Virus record (IMG/VR): IMGVR_UViG_3300020166_000004
DNA from: a virus
Direction: 5' to 3' (one strand)
Length of the DNA: 34,434 nt
Made by a program: the position numbers and the translations under genes. Under the pieces are notes generated by a model. The model had not been told where the DNA came from, did not search any database, and saw only the letters and a program-made list of their open reading frames with translations. Shown in pieces: positions 1-34,434 of this stretch (its first letter is position 1; each line of letters starts with the position of its first letter).

Positions 1-127
1 TACCAAATCGGAGGCTGTGGGAGCACCTGAGCCGCTTTTAGTTACAATTGTTGTAGCCATTGTTTAATTCCCTTGTTAGTAAGTGCCGCCTGAGAGCGTA
101 CCAGTTGTCATGTTGTCTGCGTTTAAA
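1..127. repeat. Terminal overlap identical to 34308-34434, as expected for a circular assembly; unique genome length 34,307 bp
   Basis: The first 127 nt (TACCAAATCGGAGGCTGTGG...TGTCTGCGTTTAAA) match the last 127 nt base for base. Confidence 0.95.
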
Positions 128-4008: not shown

Positions 4009-6027
4009 TTACTGACCATTAGGCCCTCTCGGTTGCATTGGGATAGTGTTGTTAGATGTAGTTTTTTTAGCAGCCTTCTCTTTTAACAGCATATCGGCTA
4101 CTTTAAGTCTACGCTCAAACTCTTTGTCGTCCTCAGTGCCAGACTTTAAGTTAGTCGTCACGGCCTTCATGCGATCAATCTCAAGCTCCTGAGGCATAAG
4201 TTGTGTTTCCATAGCAATCTTCTGCGCCCTTGCCTGAGACTCCTGAGCTTGCCCTGAGAGGGCCGCTGTCTGAGACTGCTGGAACTCCATCTGAGCCTGT
4301 TGCGTGGCTTGTTGAACCTGCTGCTGCTCTGGAGTGGGCTGTCCTGCTTGCTCTAGGCGTTGCATCAGCTCTTCACGGTTGGACAGGTTCATATTATCAA
4401 TGATTGCACTAATCAAAGACGTATACAACGGAGAGTCTGCCTTCATGGTCTGTAGGAGCTGTACAAGCTGTGTTACTTCGTACTCACGCGCCATGATGCC
4501 CAAAGTGGACGTAGCATTAAACTTATAGTCAGAGACAGGATAGTGCTCTGGGTCAAACTGCATGTATCGGTGTGCAGCTTTGGTTACAAAGGGGATTAGG
4601 AAGGACTCTTGGAAGTTAATCAGTGTACGCTTATGGCGCTTAATAATAGCACCAAGAGACATACTAATACCAGCAGCCGTTGCTTCACCGTTAATACTCC
4701 CTGAGATACCCGCAGAGTCTATGGCTCCTGTAGCGGTTTGTACCATCTTTTGTAATGCGTCAGCCTGTGCAAAGGTAATCTGACTGACCTGACCAAAGTT
4801 AAAGGGCTTTAGGATCTCGTCTGGATTACCATTGGTGAGGATAAGCTTACCCGCACGTACCTCAGGCTTAGAGCCTCTGGGGATACGTGTAGCGTCCATA
4901 GCCATCATAGGATGGACTGTAAGAGCCAGAGCGTCAATACGTGCTCTAATCTCTGCGTCCAGCGCCTTCTGGCTGTTGTAGCCCTTCTCACAGACTCCAC
5001 GACCCCAGAAGCGAGACGGTACAACGTCCCACGGGAATGCCACAATGGGTCTGTCCTGCATCATGTAGGGGTTTTCTTCCGCTTTGAGAAGAATACCACC
5101 ATTGGCAATAACCACGATGGCTTCTACGTAGTACTCTTCTGAATCAGTTTCCAGCTCACCGTCCATCTCAATGATTTCTTCTTCAACTTCATCGTCGTCG
5201 TCATCATTACTCTTAGCTAACTGAGCCTGAGCGTCAGCCAACAAGTAAGCAGGTACTAACCCATAGTACTTAGTAAGACGTACTTTGTCGTCTGCGTAGG
5301 TGGTTAGGTCTTGATCTGGCTCAATGTCAAAGTCTGGGGCTGCTGAACCTACGTGACACTTCTTGTAAACCCCAGCTTCCTGTAGCTGCTCAACGGTGTG
5401 TGCGGAGACAAACTCATCCACAGCAACGCCTAAAGCGTCCTCCACGGAGGTTGCTACGGGGTCAATAAGGAAGTTCTGAGGCATTACGGGGCGTAGGCGA
5501 CAGACAGTCCTGTCAACAATGTTAACACCCACAGCGGTTAAGTCCCCTCCCATAATGGGCTGGGTGGCTGGCATCATTTCTTTTTCATCGGAAAGAACAA
5601 CTTCCGCAATCCCCGTACCAAAGACAGCGGAATTGATAAGACACTCCGCAACAGCTTTTCTAACCTTAGTCTTCTCAAAGTCCTTATGCAGATTATTACG
5701 AAGATAAACAATGTCAGCTTTGTCAGGATCGTTAGCATCATCAGTGATGTCAAAGAACTTTCCTCTTCCAAAGGTTGCTTCTTCAATTTCCGCAACGGAA
5801 CTCTCCACGGCTTGTTGTAGGGCTGGGCTAATGATGCGAGAACGCTCTGAATCTCTGGTTACGTCTTCCTGCGCCCAGATGCCACGCCAAAGGCGATAGT
5901 ATTCATCAAACTTCTGTGCATAGTTGGCTTCAAAGTGATCCCGCCATGAGTCACATTTAGTAATGACCCAATCCTCCAAAGCCTCATCAATCATCAACGG
6001 CTTGTGTTCTTCGTTGTAATCTTCCAT
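4009..6027 (-). CDS. Portal (head-to-tail connector) protein
   Basis: 672 aa, immediately downstream of TerL. Its size, acidic insert (DDDDDEVEEE) and Q-rich C-terminal tail fit podovirus portals. Confidence 0.85.
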   Translation of the reverse strand: MEDYNEEHKPLMIDEALEDWVITKCDSWRDHFEANYAQKFDEYYRLWRGIWAQEDVTRDSERSRIISPALQQAVESSVAEIEEATFGRGKFFDITDDANDPDKADIVYLRNNLHKDFEKTKVRKAVAECLINSAVFGTGIAEVVLSDEKEMMPATQPIMGGDLTAVGVNIVDRTVCRLRPVMPQNFLIDPVATSVEDALGVAVDEFVSAHTVEQLQEAGVYKKCHVGSAAPDFDIEPDQDLTTYADDKVRLTKYYGLVPAYLLADAQAQLAKSNDDDDDEVEEEIIEMDGELETDSEEYYVEAIVVIANGGILLKAEENPYMMQDRPIVAFPWDVVPSRFWGRGVCEKGYNSQKALDAEIRARIDALALTVHPMMAMDATRIPRGSKPEVRAGKLILTNGNPDEILKPFNFGQVSQITFAQADALQKMVQTATGAIDSAGISGSINGEATAAGISMSLGAIIKRHKRTLINFQESFLIPFVTKAAHRYMQFDPEHYPVSDYKFNATSTLGIMAREYEVTQLVQLLQTMKADSPLYTSLISAIIDNMNLSNREELMQRLEQAGQPTPEQQQVQQATQQAQMEFQQSQTAALSGQAQESQARAQKIAMETQLMPQELEIDRMKAVTTNLKSGTEDDKEFERRLKVADMLLKEKAAKKTTSNNTIPMQPRGPNGQ

Positions 6028-7300: not shown

Positions 7301-7641
7301 ACCACAGGGACACCCCTTCTGTCATCAACATGAATAAATGTTTTAGCAACCCCTACGCCCTTAAAGCCCATTTCCATAGCATGTTTAATAAGTACATGCT
7401 TTTGATTACCGTCCTTTACAGCTATATCAGCAGCCACACCTAAGACATGCTGACCCACAGTCTTTTTCTTAGCTTCCACGCTGTGAGTCCTGTCTCTATA
7501 GCCACTGGTGATAGTAAAGGGGAAACCACACTTTTCTCTTAGTTCATCCAAACGATGAATAAAAGCTATGGACATTTCATTCTTACCTGTCTCTTGACAG
7601 TTAAACTCTTCATAAGTAAAATATTTAAACTCTTTACTCAT
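7288..7641 (-). CDS. Peptidase M15 (VanY/LAS-type) cell-wall hydrolase, likely the endolysin
   Basis: 117 aa with SGYRDRTHS, HVLGVAADI and FIHVD, which form the H-x6-D...H zinc-ligand pattern of M15 peptidases. Confidence 0.8.
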   Translation of the reverse strand: MSKEFKYFTYEEFNCQETGKNEMSIAFIHRLDELREKCGFPFTITSGYRDRTHSVEAKKKTVGQHVLGVAADIAVKDGNQKHVLIKHAMEMGFKGVGVAKTFIHVDDRRGVPVVWSY

Positions 7642-8023
7642 ATTCTGTGTATTCCCCTTCCATAACTTCAGGATTATCAGTAATAGTTGTTTCTTGGGAA
7701 CCTAATCCCGTTATGTTGATGGATATGGAAGACCTACCTCCATTAAGCTTATCCTTCTCAAAGTAGCTTACGGGTAACATCCTGTCCATCATTAACTTCC
7801 ATGCTGCTGCTTGATGCTTATGGTCATCGTCCAAAGCAGCATTCATGATACTGTCCAACACTTTCTGTGACTTAGGGGAGGCTAACATACGAGCTTTGTA
7901 CTCATTAATGATAGCAGCGTCACCTTTGGGTCTACCTACGGCATTCCTACCACCCTTCTTGTTAGACTCAACAAGGACTTTCTTAGGTCTACCCCGTTTT
8001 CTTTTGGGTATTTCTTCAAGCAA
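7634..8023 (-). CDS. DNA-binding protein, candidate terminase small subunit
   Basis: 129 aa, first gene of the minus-strand unit and two genes upstream of TerL. It has an N-terminal AT-hook-like KRKRGRPKK...GRPKG. The call rests on position only. Confidence 0.4.
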   Translation of the reverse strand: MLEEIPKRKRGRPKKVLVESNKKGGRNAVGRPKGDAAIINEYKARMLASPKSQKVLDSIMNAALDDDHKHQAAAWKLMMDRMLPVSYFEKDKLNGGRSSISINITGLGSQETTITDNPEVMEGEYTEYE

Positions 8024-8058
8024 AAGTATTGCCTCCTAGTATTGCTATGAGATACTTT

Positions 8059-8137
8059 AGGATACCTAAGGCAGCTTTAGAATATTACTTTAATTAATTT
8101 CTTAAAAGTAATCTCTTTATGCTTCCTTAGTATACCT
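8059..8137 (-). promoter_or_regulatory. Long imperfect leader hairpin after the 8142-8170 promoter
   Basis: The arms AGGATACCTAAGGCAGC (8059-8075) and GCTTCCTTAGTATACCT (8121-8137) are near-complementary. There is an inner stem TTACTTT (8085-8091) / AAAGTAA (8105-8111). It contains the 17-bp box CTTTAGGATACCTAAGG (8055-8071). Confidence 0.5.
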
Positions 8138-8141
8138 GTAT

Positions 8142-8170
8142 ATTATAGCACATTTTTAGTTAAAAGTCAA
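8142..8170 (-). promoter_or_regulatory. Sigma70-type promoter TTGACT-N17-TATAAT for the packaging/structural unit
   Basis: On the minus strand, -35 TTGACT is at 8170-8165 and -10 TATAAT at 8147-8142. TGC precedes the -10 as TGCTATAAT, one base off the extended -10 TGn spacing. It lies about 120 nt upstream of the first minus-strand gene. Confidence 0.7.
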
Positions 8171-8236
8171 GAACTTTCTAGTAGAAACCCTAAACTATTT
8201 GTCTTAAGCCGCACCTGTGCGATGCTTGTTGTGTCT

Positions 8237-8273
8237 ACCATTAGCCCACCATTTGACCATTTAGTCAACCATT
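8237..8273 (+). repeat. Four closely spaced ACCATT iteron-like repeats
   Basis: ACCATT occurs at 8237, 8248, 8256 and 8268, inside non-coding DNA. Confidence 0.6.
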
Positions 8274-8322
8274 CACAAAATCTATGGAATTCAAGAAGTT
8301 GATCTACAGAATTACACAATAA

Positions 8323-8406
8323 TTAGTGCCTATTAGTGTACTAAAATGCTTCTTTTTGGTGCACTTTAGTGTTCAAAATGGCCCTTTTTAGTGCCTAAGG
8401 TGGTAC
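8323..8406 (+). repeat. TTAGTG-containing direct repeats
   Basis: TTAGTGCCTATTAGTGTAC (8323-8341) matches TTAGTGCCTAAGGTGGTAC (8388-8406). TTAGTGTACTAAAATG (8333-8348) matches TTAGTGTTCAAAATG (8366-8380). The region also contains GGTGCAC. Confidence 0.55.
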
Positions 8407-8428
8407 TACTAATAATAACCAATGGCTG

Positions 8429-8458
8429 CCCCCCTCCCCCGCCCCTAAAAGCAACCCC
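8429..8458. repeat. C-rich tract with four C-runs (G-runs on the minus strand)
   Basis: CCCCCCTCCCCCGCCCCTAAAAGCAACCCC, a local composition outlier next to an AT-rich stretch. Confidence 0.8.
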
Positions 8459-8470
8459 ATTGGAAACTAT

Positions 8471-8486
8471 TGGCACACTTCTTGCT
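8471..8486 (+). promoter_or_regulatory. Sigma54-type -24/-12 promoter-like element 1
   Basis: TGGCAC-ACTTC-TTGC-T, preceded by T. This matches the RpoN consensus YTGGCACG-N4-TTGCW except G to A at the position after TGGCAC. Confidence 0.55.
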
Positions 8487-8496
8487 TGCCTAAAGT

Positions 8497-8512
8497 TGGC
8501 ACGGATCTTGCA
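8497..8512 (+). promoter_or_regulatory. Sigma54-type -24/-12 promoter-like element 2
   Basis: TTGGCACGGATCTTGCA, a complete match to YTGGCACG-N4-TTGCW. Confidence 0.6.
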
Positions 8513-8523
8513 GGGCCTAGAGT

Positions 8524-8539
8524 TGGCATGATAGTTGCT
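8524..8539 (+). promoter_or_regulatory. Sigma54-type -24/-12 promoter-like element 3
   Basis: TTGGCATGATAGTTGCT. The GG and GC dinucleotides have the correct spacing. Confidence 0.5.
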
Positions 8540-8549
8540 AGGGGTAGCC

Positions 8550-8569
8550 TGTGGATAACCTGTGGATAA
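8550..8569 (+). promoter_or_regulatory. Two tandem DnaA boxes
   Basis: TGTGGATAA-CC-TGTGGATAA. Each 9-mer is the exact reverse complement of the consensus DnaA box TTATCCACA. Confidence 0.6.
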
Positions 8570-8573
8570 CTAT

Positions 8574-8589
8574 TGGCACGCTTATTGCT
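8574..8589 (+). promoter_or_regulatory. Sigma54-type -24/-12 promoter-like element 4
   Basis: TTGGCACGCTTATTGCT, a complete match to YTGGCACG-N4-TTGCW. Confidence 0.6.
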
Positions 8590-8599
8590 TGCCTAAAGT

Positions 8600-8615
8600 T
8601 GGCATGGGTCTTGCA
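8600..8615 (+). promoter_or_regulatory. Sigma54-type -24/-12 promoter-like element 5
   Basis: TTGGCATGGGTCTTGCA. Its -12 element is part of the palindrome CTTGCA-TAACG-TGCAAG (8610-8626). Confidence 0.5.
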
Positions 8616-8646
8616 TAACGTGCAAGAAGCATACCATTGGCAACAT

Positions 8647-8662
8647 TGGCACACTTATTGCT
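8647..8662 (+). promoter_or_regulatory. Sigma54-type -24/-12 promoter-like element 6
   Basis: TTGGCACACTTATTGCT, same orientation as the early genes and about 190 nt upstream of the first ORF. Confidence 0.55.
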
Positions 8663-8790
8663 AGGCGTGTGGGTCTAGTGGGGAGCCTATGGCGGCCCAT
8701 GTCCACCTATCACAGATTGGCAACCATTGGAAGACCTACAGACTACTATTGGTCTTACTTATGATGCGTTATATAGACAACAATCAGTGC

Positions 8791-8818
8791 TTGCATTGTC
8801 TAAACCATTTGATACTAT
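8791..8818 (+). promoter_or_regulatory. Possible sigma70-type early promoter
   Basis: TTGCAT-N16-TACTAT, about 35 nt upstream of the AGGAG SD and the ATG at 8854. Confidence 0.4.
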
Positions 8819-8853
8819 AGGTTCATCAATCAACTATATAGGAGCAACATAAG

Positions 8854-9054
8854 ATGCACATCAGGAACGGGATCAAAAAGGTTAGAGCAGGGCAATATAG
8901 AATTGACCATGATCACGGCTCTTGTTCTGTAGAGCGTGACGACTTCGGGCAATGGCTAGTGCTGGAGGAATGCACCGGCCACATTTACAAAGTCGCCCAG
9001 ACAAAGGCAAGCGCGATTGATTACGTTATTGACCATTGGGGTAGCTTTAAATAA
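8854..9054 (+). CDS. Early hypothetical protein
   Basis: 66 aa, ATG preceded by TATAGGAGCAACATAAG. It is the first plus-strand gene. Confidence 0.5.
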   Translation: MHIRNGIKKVRAGQYRIDHDHGSCSVERDDFGQWLVLEECTGHIYKVAQTKASAIDYVIDHWGSFK

Positions 9055-9124
9055 ACCCACTGATGAGCTTGTGAGATTCAAGCGAAACGCCTATATTGGG
9101 CGTCTGGGTAAACTAAACTTTACA

Positions 9125-9385
9125 ATGGAGCAGTACAACATGAAGACAGACTACAACGGTTGGACGAACCGAGAGACTTGGGTTATCAATCTATGGTTGG
9201 GCGCGTATTTCCAAGACGTAGCCAATGAGGGGCAAAGCTTGATGGCTGACTACATAGAAGAGACAGTGTGGGATATGCTAGAAGAGGCGGAAGTACCCCC
9301 AATGTTTAAAGACTTGATTGATCTAGGCGCTGTCAACTGGCAGGAATTGGCAGAGCATTACGTAACGGATGAGGAGGTAGCATAA
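9125..9385 (+). CDS. Early hypothetical protein (NGWTNRETWVINLW motif)
   Basis: This is the ORF-track frame 9017-9385. I trimmed it to the internal ATG at 9125 because 9017 overlaps the previous gene. An alternative ATG lies at 9140, after GGAG. Confidence 0.45.
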   Translation: MEQYNMKTDYNGWTNRETWVINLWLGAYFQDVANEGQSLMADYIEETVWDMLEEAEVPPMFKDLIDLGAVNWQELAEHYVTDEEVA

Positions 9386-9386
9386 C

Positions 9387-9590
9387 ATGAGAGACACTAG
9401 ACAGCAGGAACTAGCAAAGCACGGTGATTTAATATCGCCCTTCAATGGCAGGGTACTGACTCAAGTTGAGGTGGATGGATACAACCGCTACACCTTAGAC
9501 TTCAATCGGTTTACCTATGAGGCTGACAAGGAGTTTATGCTAGATCAGCGCCATAGGTTTATAGTCAATTGCTTTTATGAGGTAGCATAA
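9387..9590 (+). CDS. Early hypothetical protein
   Basis: 67 aa. The start is coupled to the upstream stop through the junction GAGGTAGCATAACATG. Confidence 0.5.
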   Translation: MRDTRQQELAKHGDLISPFNGRVLTQVEVDGYNRYTLDFNRFTYEADKEFMLDQRHRFIVNCFYEVA

Positions 9591-9591
9591 C

Positions 9592-9906
9592 ATGATCCAC
9601 ACTAACGACAGCCTAAGGGCACAGGACGGCGACTTTGAGAACTACCACTATCAATTAGAAGACGGGGAACAGTACACGCTGACAGACGACGAACTGAGCT
9701 GGCTTGATTTTGTCTCTGGACGCTACAGCATAGCGGACCACATAACCGACAACCTAGACGATGGAGTCTATACTGTAGACCTGTACGGCATGGGTGAGGC
9801 ATTAGAAGCGGACGGGATGTTCCCTAAGGCGGTTTGCTTGTCAGACGATACAGCTTTACAATCAATATTTTTCTATAGCGCAATGGAGGTGGAATATGAG
9901 AACTAG
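9592..9906 (+). CDS. Strongly acidic early protein
   Basis: 104 aa with the same GAGGTAGCATAACATG coupling junction. By hand count it has about two dozen D/E residues against three K/R. Confidence 0.55.
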   Translation: MIHTNDSLRAQDGDFENYHYQLEDGEQYTLTDDELSWLDFVSGRYSIADHITDNLDDGVYTVDLYGMGEALEADGMFPKAVCLSDDTALQSIFFYSAMEVEYEN

Positions 9907-11266: not shown

Positions 11267-11523
11267 ATATTGAAAAAGAGCATTGTGATTATTATTTAGA
11301 GGTCTATCACTGGGACCATAAGTTAGTTAATGGAGTCGTCACTCAAAAAGAGAAAATTGTCTTGGCCTTTATTGGGCTTTACCGAGACTGGGATCTTGAG
11401 TTTGAGGATCAATTGACAATCTTGACCAATCTTAGAGAAAACTTAATATCGGCGTACTTGAACTGGCCTGACGGCGAAGTCACAGTTTCTTTGGTCATTA
11501 AAGAAGAGGGGGTTAATTTATGA
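11263..11523 (+). CDS. Hypothetical protein
   Basis: 86 aa, overlapping both neighbours by 4 nt. Confidence 0.5.
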   Translation: MNIEKEHCDYYLEVYHWDHKLVNGVVTQKEKIVLAFIGLYRDWDLEFEDQLTILTNLRENLISAYLNWPDGEVTVSLVIKEEGVNL

Positions 11524-11711
11524 TAATCTTTACAAACAAAGAGGCGCGGGTTATCTCTTACTTGAAGATGGGCTACACTGACAAAGAGATAGCAAACTTA
11601 ACCTATAGCTCTGAGCGGACTGCTAAAGCTCACGTTCAGAACATTAGAGAAAAACTAAGCGCACGTAATAGGACTGTGGCGGCTTTAATGCTAAACGGGG
11701 TAAAGGTATGA
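11520..11711 (+). CDS. Standalone LuxR/GerE-type helix-turn-helix protein
   Basis: 63 aa. KEARVISYLKMGYTDKEIANLTYSSERTAKAHVQNIREKLSARNRTVAA matches the GerE/LuxR C-terminal HTH pattern. There is no receiver or ligand domain. Confidence 0.75.
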   Translation: MIIFTNKEARVISYLKMGYTDKEIANLTYSSERTAKAHVQNIREKLSARNRTVAALMLNGVKV

Positions 11712-33095: not shown

Positions 33096-34367
33096 TTATG
33101 CTGTGAAGTAAACGAATGTACAAAGGAAATTACCCGTTCCCATAACAGCGTGGGTTACAGCGACCGCACCTGATGTTGCTCCCGCCCCAGAATAGACGGC
33201 GGCAGAAGCCGTGTTTGGGAAAATAAGAACATTCAGACCTTCTGCGGCTGTCGTAAAGTTTTGAGCATGAATTGCGGAGGAACTTCCGTAAATGTAGCTC
33301 ATGTCTGACGAAGTAAAAGGTAGGGTGATCTCTAAAGACCCGCTTGCGGTTCCCAAAACATTAATGTCAATGTGAACTGACGCAGTAACTAGGTTGCCCA
33401 CCTTTGTATATCTTCCGACTTGAGTCGTATAAGTTCCTGTTCCCATGTTTGCAAAGGCAGGAGTCCACGTCCCTTCTTCGTAGTCGTCTAGCGTATTAGC
33501 TGCGTTATAAGTACCGACTGCTGTGCCTAATGTTACGCCAGCGGGGATAATGGCATGCCCGCTGGCATCGATGCGCATGCGTTCTGCGTCGGCAGTTCCA
33601 AAGATAACTGGGTATGCGTTGGCAGTTCCCATTGCTAAAGGGTAACTTGCGACCGAAAGGATTTTTGCCGCGTTTGTTTGACCGAAAGAGTTATTAGCTA
33701 GGTTCTGGCCTATGTATAAATCTGAAACTGTGCCTGTAAGCCGCAACCAGTTGACCGTGTCTGTTCCGTCACCGACTTGTAAAGCTGAGGTAGGAGAACT
33801 CGTCCCAATCCCCAAATTGCCCGAGGCATCCAGCGTCGCCGCAATTGTCGTAGCTTCTGTGGTGTTGTCGCCGCCAACTAAAAACTGAAGCTGACCTGCG
33901 CCTGCGCCTGTTACAGTAGGTTTGATTCCTGACCTACTTGCTCCCCCAGCAACAGCAGGAAAACCAAGCGTCATAGCGTCATAACCGACAACTTGTGTTT
34001 GCCCTGCGCTGGTTATGCGCATGCGTTCGGTGTCGTTAGTCTTGAAAACCATTGGGCCGTTATCGACATTGACAAGTTGAGCTTCGCCGCCACTAAAGTT
34101 TTTAATAAGGAAGCCAGACGTATTGCCCGTATGTCTTAGCGTAATTGACGCAGGGTCGGTAGATGTTTCAACAGTAAGCCCATCCGCCGTGACGCTGCCC
34201 GTGACGTCCACATTGCCACTGGGGTTTAACCCTAGTTCAAGAACAGTACCACCTGAGTCCTCAGTGTACAAACGTCCGTTAGTTAAATCTACGGCAAGCT
34301 CTCCAGCTACCAAATCGGAGGCTGTGGGAGCACCTGAGCCGCTTTTAGTTACAATTGTTGTAGCCAT
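33096..34367 (-). CDS. Tail fibre / receptor-binding protein
   Basis: 423 aa. The N-terminus DLVAGELAVDLTNGRLYTEDSGG and the C-terminal LDDYEEGTWTP...GRYTKVGNLV domain are typical fibre motifs. Its first 60 nt are repeated at window positions 1-60 because of the circular overlap. Confidence 0.7.
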   Translation of the reverse strand: MATTIVTKSGSGAPTASDLVAGELAVDLTNGRLYTEDSGGTVLELGLNPSGNVDVTGSVTADGLTVETSTDPASITLRHTGNTSGFLIKNFSGGEAQLVNVDNGPMVFKTNDTERMRITSAGQTQVVGYDAMTLGFPAVAGGASRSGIKPTVTGAGAGQLQFLVGGDNTTEATTIAATLDASGNLGIGTSSPTSALQVGDGTDTVNWLRLTGTVSDLYIGQNLANNSFGQTNAAKILSVASYPLAMGTANAYPVIFGTADAERMRIDASGHAIIPAGVTLGTAVGTYNAANTLDDYEEGTWTPAFANMGTGTYTTQVGRYTKVGNLVTASVHIDINVLGTASGSLEITLPFTSSDMSYIYGSSSAIHAQNFTTAAEGLNVLIFPNTASAAVYSGAGATSGAVAVTHAVMGTGNFLCTFVYFTA

Positions 34368-34434
34368 TGTTTAATTCCCTTGTTAGTAAGTGCCGCCTGA
34401 GAGCGTACCAGTTGTCATGTTGTCTGCGTTTAAA
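34308..34434. repeat. Second copy of the 127-nt circular overlap
   Basis: Identical to 1-127. Confidence 0.95.

Follow-up and report, generated by a model that had tools for sequence, protein, structure and literature searches.

This study examines an array of sigma-54 (RpoN)-type sites in an uncultured marine phage, IMG/VR record IMGVR_UViG_3300020166_000004, whose whole stretch of 34,434 nt is called the window here and supplies all coordinates unless a related locus is named. An earlier note on this DNA had described six -24/-12 promoter-like elements ahead of the early genes and had offered three explanations: a promoter bank dependent on a host activator, a sink for the sigma-54 holoenzyme (E-sigma54), or sites of some other protein that mimic the RpoN consensus. 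At the level of sequence the analysis establishes a match to sigma-54 sites, purifying selection on those sites, their membership in a cassette with several alleles, and the lack of a phage-encoded binder or activator. The sites probably bind sigma-54. The reading that we favor, tentatively and a little short of calling it probable, is that they bind host E-sigma54 and form a poised, enhancer-dependent promoter bank, one allele of the cassette, which is aimed mostly at the early genes. Among the three earlier explanations, mimicry by another protein appears the least likely after the comparative tests.

All six elements are found where the earlier note had placed them, as exact matches to TGGCAY-N5-TTGCW on the plus strand: site 1 at 8471..8486 (TGGCACACTTCTTGCT; 20.3 bits), site 2 at 8497..8512 (TGGCACGGATCTTGCA; 15.9 bits), site 3 at 8524..8539 (TGGCATGATAGTTGCT; 20.2 bits), site 4 at 8574..8589 (TGGCACGCTTATTGCT; 21.7 bits, the best score in the window), site 5 at 8600..8615 (TGGCATGGGTCTTGCA; 18.1 bits) and site 6 at 8647..8662 (TGGCACACTTATTGCT; 20.0 bits). 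Sites 2 and 4 also fit the stricter form YTGGCACG-N4-TTGCW, again as had been claimed. The pattern occurred on average 0.06 times in 100 dinucleotide shuffles, in line with the earlier estimate of well under one by chance, and there was no exact match in the window outside the array; matches with up to two mismatches outside the array numbered 39 against 32.8 expected, which is no enrichment. The scores come from a position weight matrix built on 29 intergenic Salmonella sigma-54 sites validated by chromatin immunoprecipitation (Table 3, PMC3844500). When the whole window was scored on both strands, as had been proposed, the six sites were its top six matches at 15.9–21.7 bits. The Salmonella training sites themselves spanned 16.0–23.2 bits, and simulated genomes had a mean maximum of 14.0 and on average 0.16 sites each that reached the lowest training score. 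The GG and GC elements thus stand at fixed spacing with scores in the validated range, as expected of -24/-12 elements.

The layout of the array is somewhat richer than had been described. The six forward sites are joined by a seventh, inverted site on the minus strand at 8621..8636 (TGGTATGCTTCTTGCA; 12.5 bits), so that the claim of a same-strand array directed wholly at the early genes holds for six of the seven. The inverted site departs from the pattern at a single position, the C of TGGCA, is set face to face with site 5 at a distance of 5 bp, and belongs to an inverted repeat; it is exact in five close relatives (L003, L005, L006, L012 and L014) and in L202, a population variant. Sites follow one another at about 26–27 bp from center to center, and a 103-bp offset duplication, also reported earlier, relates 8465-8512 to 8568-8615 with 92% identity over 48 nt. 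Two perfect tandem DnaA boxes on the minus strand (8550-8558 and 8561-8569; TTATCCACA) lie between sites 3 and 4. No other perfect DnaA box occurs in the window, and the pair is kept in some close relatives and missing from others. The first reading had overlooked these boxes, the inverted site and a sigma-70-type early promoter described below. The TTGCT of site 6 occupies the place of a TTGACA that in relatives starts the conserved downstream element. A CCATTGG motif recurs around the array, at 8457-8467, 8634-8644 and 8716-8734.

Of the first 80 related loci, 27 have the motif array on the upstream side of the terminase arm, with up to 9 copies. Among 18 distinct cassettes there were 100 exact sites and 4 with one mismatch, with the 8 matches at two mismatches being near the chance level of 4. 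Alignment with relatives, which the earlier note had proposed, showed the motif conserved in array-bearing loci while spacers and linkers drift within and between lineages; the note's observation that variation falls in the spacer around fixed GG and GC elements therefore extends to the family, except that the constraint spans all 11 defined positions and not the two dinucleotides alone. In L202, whose terminase is identical to that of the window, every difference from the window falls at a Y, W, spacer or linker position. At positions outside the search pattern, family sites carry A at -31 in 72%, a purine at -28 in 90%, T at -27 in 84%, a purine at -20 in 99% and T at -17 in 77%, in agreement with what we take to be the extended sigma-54 consensus. 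The strict pattern is met by only 10 of the 29 validated Salmonella sites, and the median score is 19.9 bits for family sites against 17.6 for Salmonella sites (leave-one-out). Because of the excess of exact sites, the confined differences of L202 and the scores above those of Salmonella, strong purifying selection is seen to act on all eleven defined positions of the sites, which by the Salmonella matrix are also better sigma-54 matches than typical host promoters. An origin of the array by chance or as a recent duplication artefact was rejected, as the array is conserved across lineages with different linkers. Assemblies were seen to break or to have gaps exactly at the array (a scaffold gap in L203; contig ends in L002, L003, L025, L033, L035 and L050), and since they often do so, counts of arrays made on assembled viral contigs are probably too low.

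The array is one of several alleles of a swappable cassette, apparently made up of sites for host factors. An AT-rich block, a C-rich anchor and a GTGTG element are conserved throughout the family, and the 150–250 bp between anchor and element are hypervariable. In the window the anchor, which forms the left edge of the cassette, is at 8429..8445 on the plus strand (CCCCCCTCCCCCGCCCC) and occupies the same position in about 48 related loci; the right edge is a G-rich element at 8667..8692 on the plus strand (GTGTGGG...GGGGAGCCTATGG), which is conserved across cassette types and has the family form GTGTGRGG..GGGAGCCTATRG. The downstream TTGACA-AGTGTG element was considered as a sigma-70 promoter and rejected for want of a -10 element at 16–18 bp. 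Sigma-54-type arrays are the commonest allele and are scattered over the terminase tree. A further allele consists of 5–8 perfect DnaA boxes with degenerate ones (L055, L057, L061, L067, L068, L074, L029), including many near-perfect boxes in both orientations, directly after the anchor and AT-rich block (e.g., in reverse-complement coordinates, L057 8533-8711 and L067 6018-6210); by analogy its layout resembles oriC or datA. The type-C allele has five or six tandem CACCATTGGG units at an 11-bp period followed by CACAGGCACAC repeats (L007, L010, L011, L013); the GCACCA core of these units resembles an NtrC half-site. Others comprise repeated TTGACA-containing units (L019-L022, L038, L039), nine ACT-N-AGT palindromes (L031), Fur-like 7-1-7 boxes (L058, reverse complement 9160-9420, with GATAACGATTCTCAATAGC twice and the palindrome TGAGAATGATTCTCA beside a TTGACC -35 element), and two abutting E. 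coli-type LexA boxes of the form CTGT-N8-ACAG (L063, reverse complement 4172-4205).

Exchange of the cassette can be seen directly when the window is compared with a type-C relative, L013. The two align over 7619-8170 at 82% and over 8684-8856 at 85.5%, while the center does not align. The right flank includes a candidate sigma-70 early promoter with an extended -10 element at 8791..8818 on the plus strand (TTGCAT-16-TGaTACTAT), 36 nt before the first ATG. It was identified by reading the sequence, its score being under the threshold of the promoter scan, and is common to L012, L013 and L015, including relatives without sigma-54-like sites. Because this promoter lies in the aligned flank, early transcription would not need the sigma-54-type array, which is dispensable at the family level as one of several interchangeable cassettes; the array is not the only early promoter and probably not the main one. 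Of the early promoter bank that had been proposed, the consensus match therefore stands and a primary role in early transcription probably does not, with a sigma-70-type promoter nearer to the first gene.

The same motif and geometry recur in phages that are not related to the window. A scan for two sites 8–16 bp apart, which covered the viral IMG/VR collection as distinct from cultured phage genomes and bacterial chromosomes, found paired sites in at least 120 DNA stretches, against a chance estimate of about one such pair in the whole collection. Among the matches listed, about half share no tested protein with the window, and these loci range in G+C content (GC) from 0.31 to 0.64, with contigs up to 161 kb and clusters of up to ten sites. 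In 30 such unrelated loci the arrays lie in large intergenic regions, often between divergent genes, at a spacing of 26–29 bp. Unrelated loci include the contig of a PurZ-encoding (Z-genome type) phage with eight alternating sites (L086, 12282-12706), a viral contig of GC 0.64 with ten same-strand sites 26–28 bp apart between divergent open reading frames (ORFs) (L179, 1964-2252), and a locus with an unrelated terminase (L168). In L121, L168 and L140, the last a 161-kb contig, there are many dispersed tandem pairs, TGGCAYGATATTTGCT, 26–43 bp apart, with a conserved hairpin, CTGCCATTTTGGCAG, after the downstream copy of each pair, which have the appearance of sigma-54-type promoter units that form a genome-wide set in a region of small genes. 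That unrelated phages of very different base composition share both motif and geometry argues for a universal host factor, as opposed to a phage-specific protein, as the one predicted to recognize the sites.

A search for a phage-encoded partner leads to the same view. Neither PHROGs nor Pfam detected an RNA polymerase, a sigma factor or an AAA+ enhancer-binding protein in the phage, in keeping with what the earlier note had read from the ORFs. All ORFs downstream of the anchor were clustered for 25 loci, 11 array-bearing and 14 others, and no gene family was present in all array-bearing loci and in no others. The ORF best associated with the array, of 68 amino acids (aa), was found in 9 of 11 array-bearing loci and in 3 of 14 others; neither it nor a very acidic 104-aa early protein (9592-9906), which is possibly a DNA mimic or an anti-restriction protein, has any likeness to DNA-binding proteins. 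The sole recognizable DNA binder of the phage is a 63-aa stand-alone helix-turn-helix protein of GerE/LuxR type (11520-11711), and neither it nor the acidic protein tracks the array. One locus, L075, combines an array of three sites with early genes like those of the DnaA-box group. A phage-encoded binder or activator thus appears to be absent.

The genome in which the array lies is of podovirus type. An exact 127-bp direct repeat at the ends of the window (1-127 and 34308-34434) indicates a circular assembly with a true length of 34,307 bp. Genes form three blocks: rightward from 8854, small early genes, ThyX, T7-like primase-helicase, DNA polymerase, Cas4-type exonuclease, endonuclease VII and ribonucleotide reductase; leftward from 8023, a 129-aa ORF, endolysin, large terminase, portal, scaffold, capsid and fibre; and leftward over 34367-21056, the rest of the structural genes. 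The array is located in the 830-bp divergent region separating the two arms, which reads on the plus strand as a sigma-70 promoter for the structural arm, AT-rich block, C-rich anchor, cassette, conserved element, sigma-70 early promoter and early genes. The first of these promoters, at 8142..8170 on the minus strand (TTGACT-17-TATAAT with extended TG), is near consensus, with 11 of 12 matches in the promoter scan; it heads the lysis, packaging and structural arm, its "aaagtcaa" element is conserved in relatives, and the late genes seem to be transcribed by unmodified host polymerase. The AT-rich region, 8260-8420, contains three repeats of about 33 bp at 8323..8408 on the plus strand (TTAGTGCCTATTAGTGTACTA), and the 150 bp preceding the anchor are 66% A+T. 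The first early ORF (8854..9054, plus strand, 66 aa) has an AGGAG ribosome-binding site ahead of it and is also called in L201 and L202. Rfam and transfer RNA scans of the window found nothing.

Relatives of the phage are numerous in the sea and distant in culture. A nucleotide search with 7600-9600 against cultured phages gave no match. By primase-helicase, terminase and capsid, the cultured relatives are pelagiphages, roseophages, freshwater cyanopodoviruses and Ralstonia phages at less than 50% identity; the primase-helicase reaches no more than 48% identity with its pelagiphage and roseophage counterparts, and the capsid about 30–39% with those of freshwater cyanopodoviruses. The best terminase match, Vibrio phage 1.157.O, was rejected as a relative because it is an unrelated siphovirus. 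More than 7,000 uncultured relatives appeared in the protein-cluster search, with no named isolate, and thousands of marine ones are present in IMG/VR and the protein collection. An identical terminase also occurs in several ENA metagenome assemblies, whose record-name study codes (KOPF15, KRUG19) look like those of ocean-survey samples.

As to the host, a search of 185,579 species genomes with the terminase yielded nothing but misbinned contigs of metagenome-assembled genomes. The canonical sigma-70 promoters, consensus DnaA boxes and E. coli-type LexA boxes suggest a gamma- or betaproteobacterium, lineages known to carry rpoN; SAR11 and cyanobacteria, on which the nearest cultured relatives grow, are not known to. 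In L014 (3548) and in L203, whose terminase is identical to that of the window, a CTGT-N8-ACAG LexA box separates a sigma-70 promoter from the ribosome-binding site of the first early gene, an arrangement that hints at SOS control.

If the sites bind E-sigma54, a plausible course of events may be drawn from known properties of the factor. Sigma-54 elements are expected to hold the holoenzyme in a stable closed complex (PMC3844500). Many better-than-host sites on the single incoming genome copy would capture scarce E-sigma54 in this form, and a host enhancer-binding ATPase, for instance an NtrC-type activator in nutrient-limited cells, would then fire the captured complexes. The extra transcripts would cross the sigma-70 promoter region on their way right and enter the early genes, with no terminator-like site between array and first gene in the terminator scan, and early expression would in this way be coupled to, or boosted by, the physiological state of the host. 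Orientation gives this scheme some support, as 145 of 188 sites (77%) in 41 distinct arrays beside the anchor point toward the early genes. A few loci also resemble ordinary enhancer-dependent units: four GCAC-N7-GTGC palindromes (e.g., GCACCAATGTAGTGC) lie upstream of the inverted array, and in its orientation, in L150 (2446-2530) and L162 (1825-1909), the same NtrC-type 15-mer lies upstream of forward sites in L185 (5328-5344), and single sigma-54-type sites stand directly upstream of genes in L029, L031 and L051.

Several observations weigh against a promoter bank. The remaining 43 of 188 sites are inverted, arrays are wholly inverted in 5 of 41 cases (L125, L150, L161, L162, L195), and three lineages alternate the orientation of their sites. 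Neighbors of the same orientation are 25–31 bp apart with a mode of 26–27 bp, or about 2.5 helical turns, and reverse-then-forward pairs are 26 or 36 bp apart; forward-then-reverse pairs are held at 20–21 bp, a conserved face-to-face arrangement that is, like the mixed orientation, awkward for a simple promoter bank. An RNA hairpin formed by the face-to-face pairs was rejected, because complementarity is limited to motif positions and does not extend to spacers, so that the constraint lies on protein sites. The phage encodes no enhancer-binding protein, and there is no general upstream activator site: good NtrC-like palindromes are limited to L150, L162 and L185, local enrichment is only 3.6-fold and comes from a few loci, and the only NtrC-like site 110–300 bp upstream of the sites in the window is a weak one with 2 mismatches, inside the AT-rich block (8347-8363, plus strand, TGCTTCTTTTTGGTGCA). 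The nearer sigma-70 promoter serves relatives that have no array, so the array is not needed for early transcription. Closed complexes on downstream sites would block polymerases that started upstream, and the allelic cassettes of DnaA, LexA and Fur-like boxes are not promoters. Lastly, rpoN is predicted from a putative host lineage, as neither the terminase search nor the cultured relatives pointed to a particular host.

Some of these points would be better accommodated if the sites were a decoy, binding sigma-54 or E-sigma54 without firing, so that hundreds of consensus sites on replicated copies titrate the scarce factor and silence the sigma-54 regulon of the host, or if bound complexes acted as a roadblock or barrier in the control region; by extension the allelic cassettes would likewise titrate DnaA, LexA or Fur. 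We consider this rather unlikely overall. It would account for sites that are nearly all perfect and better than typical host promoters, for a packing at about 2.5 helical turns that is close to the minimum for full occupancy and recurs in unrelated phages, for an orientation that is not fixed and the conserved face-to-face pairs, for the 5–8 perfect DnaA boxes that fill the same slot in relatives in the manner of a titration locus, and for an array that is dispensable for early transcription and comes with neither an encoded activator nor a general activator site. The bias of sites toward the early genes is less easily explained by a sink, though tandem duplication alone could give it, and the single sites and NtrC-like boxes of some relatives have the appearance of ordinary enhancer-promoter units. 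Moreover, sequestered E-sigma54 would lock up core polymerase that the phage needs, and the LexA and Fur-like cassettes, with 2–4 sites, have too few for abundant repressors. A broader idea, which takes in both capture and titration and which we hold to be unlikely, is that these are exchangeable, protein-free "capture cassettes" whose packed host-factor sites, for sigma-54 polymerase here and for DnaA, LexA or Fur in sister phages, seize or titrate the factor as the genome multiplies.

The AT-rich block and DnaA boxes raise the question of replication. By analogy with the origins of T7 and lambda, the AT-rich block may unwind while the cassette supplies the opener, either DnaA or sigma-54-dependent transcription and supercoiling. 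The order of AT-rich block, GC-rich cluster and, in relatives, DnaA-box cluster mirrors bacterial oriC, two perfect DnaA boxes lie inside the array, and inverted arrays lie directly against the anchor, with their sites directed into the AT-rich block. The phage also has T7-like replication genes, primase-helicase and DNA polymerase, and T7-like replication starts at origins that combine a promoter with an AT-rich segment. The cumulative GC-skew minimum falls at 8–9 kb, but it coincides with the switch of gene strand and is for that reason uninformative. Most arrays are directed away from the AT-rich block, many sigma-54-type arrays lack a DnaA box, LexA and Fur-like alleles have no obvious role at an origin, and no origin has been mapped in any relative, which together make an auxiliary origin function improbable. 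Slightly more improbable still is that the motif is not a sigma-54 element at all, and that the repeats are iterons or operators for a phage or host protein, such as a tandem regulator of a T(G/T)GCA repeat with an 11-bp period. The core of the site can indeed be read as a quasi-direct repeat, TGGCA...TTGCA, one helical turn apart, and regular 26–27-bp repeats beside the AT-rich block and two DnaA boxes do have the layout of iteron origins such as P1 oriR; the phage further has a gene for at least one small helix-turn-helix protein, of the GerE/LuxR type. That gene, however, recurs in just 2 of the other array-bearing loci, the conserved 129-aa gene beside the array has the same allele whether or not an array is present, and no gene, and hence no element-encoded initiator, co-varies with the array. 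The half-sites never interchange (no TGGCA-N6-TGGCA or TTGCA-N6-TTGCA variants were found beyond chance linker overlaps), the flanking positions follow the extended sigma-54 consensus, and the motif and spacing are identical in unrelated phages across a GC range of 0.31–0.64.

The question matters because the start and timing of the transcription program in T7-like phages without an RNA polymerase are poorly understood, and phages of this kind occur in great abundance in coastal seas. Should the array bind sigma-54 polymerase, this large family and other phages with similar arrays would tap the enhancer-dependent, nutrient-responsive transcription of the host and link infection to its nitrogen or stress state. 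If it is a sink, it would be a new protein-free way to disarm a host regulon, and if the capture-cassette idea is true, takeover of the host or sensing of its state would be accomplished by DNA sequence alone, with sigma-54 arrays as the commonest form. In any case the allelic cassettes (sigma-54, DnaA, LexA and Fur-like) are a natural experiment, in which variants with isogenic flanks already exist in nature.

Compared with known systems, the promoter bank that we favor has familiar parts in an unfamiliar arrangement. Host sigma-54 promoters are single sites with an enhancer 80–150 bp upstream (PMC3844500). The phage sites share with glnAp2 and pspA the core TGGCAC-N5-TTGCW and the GG and GC elements ten bases apart, but are packed in groups of 6–9 at 26–29 bp, some of them face to face, without a general enhancer or an activator gene and on the genome of a lytic-type phage. 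Among phages, the only case found is the single sigma-54-like promoter of Pseudomonas phage YuA (PMC10914365), an unrelated siphovirus with one site and no array described. The literature searched gave no account of packed sigma-54 arrays in the control regions of phages or of allelic host-factor cassettes, in agreement with the earlier note's impression that multi-copy sigma-54 promoters had not been described from the control regions of lytic phages. Sigma-54 promoters as such are already known, and there is a chance that the cassette principle is new.

The early promoters A1, A2 and A3 of T7 are of sigma-70 type, constitutive, about 100 bp apart and in one orientation. The array would resemble them as a stack of several strong promoters, in its case predicted ones, for the host polymerase ahead of the early genes of a T7-like genome, where they would capture polymerase on one incoming DNA, whereas its sites are of sigma-54 type, follow one another at 26 bp in mixed orientation and are predicted to be enhancer-dependent. 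Dense consensus DnaA boxes beside an AT-rich region are found at oriC, at the titration locus datA and at P1 oriR. The cassettes are like these in setting dense sites for a host protein beside an AT-rich region, with two DnaA boxes in the array and 5–8 in relatives; the factor recognized by the array, however, is predicted to be sigma-54 polymerase and not an initiator. Finally, the NtcA sites of cyanophages and PhoB boxes are, to our knowledge, single operator-type sites before individual genes. They are similar in drawing on a host regulator of nutrient status, which the array would do instead with packed sites in an exchangeable cassette.

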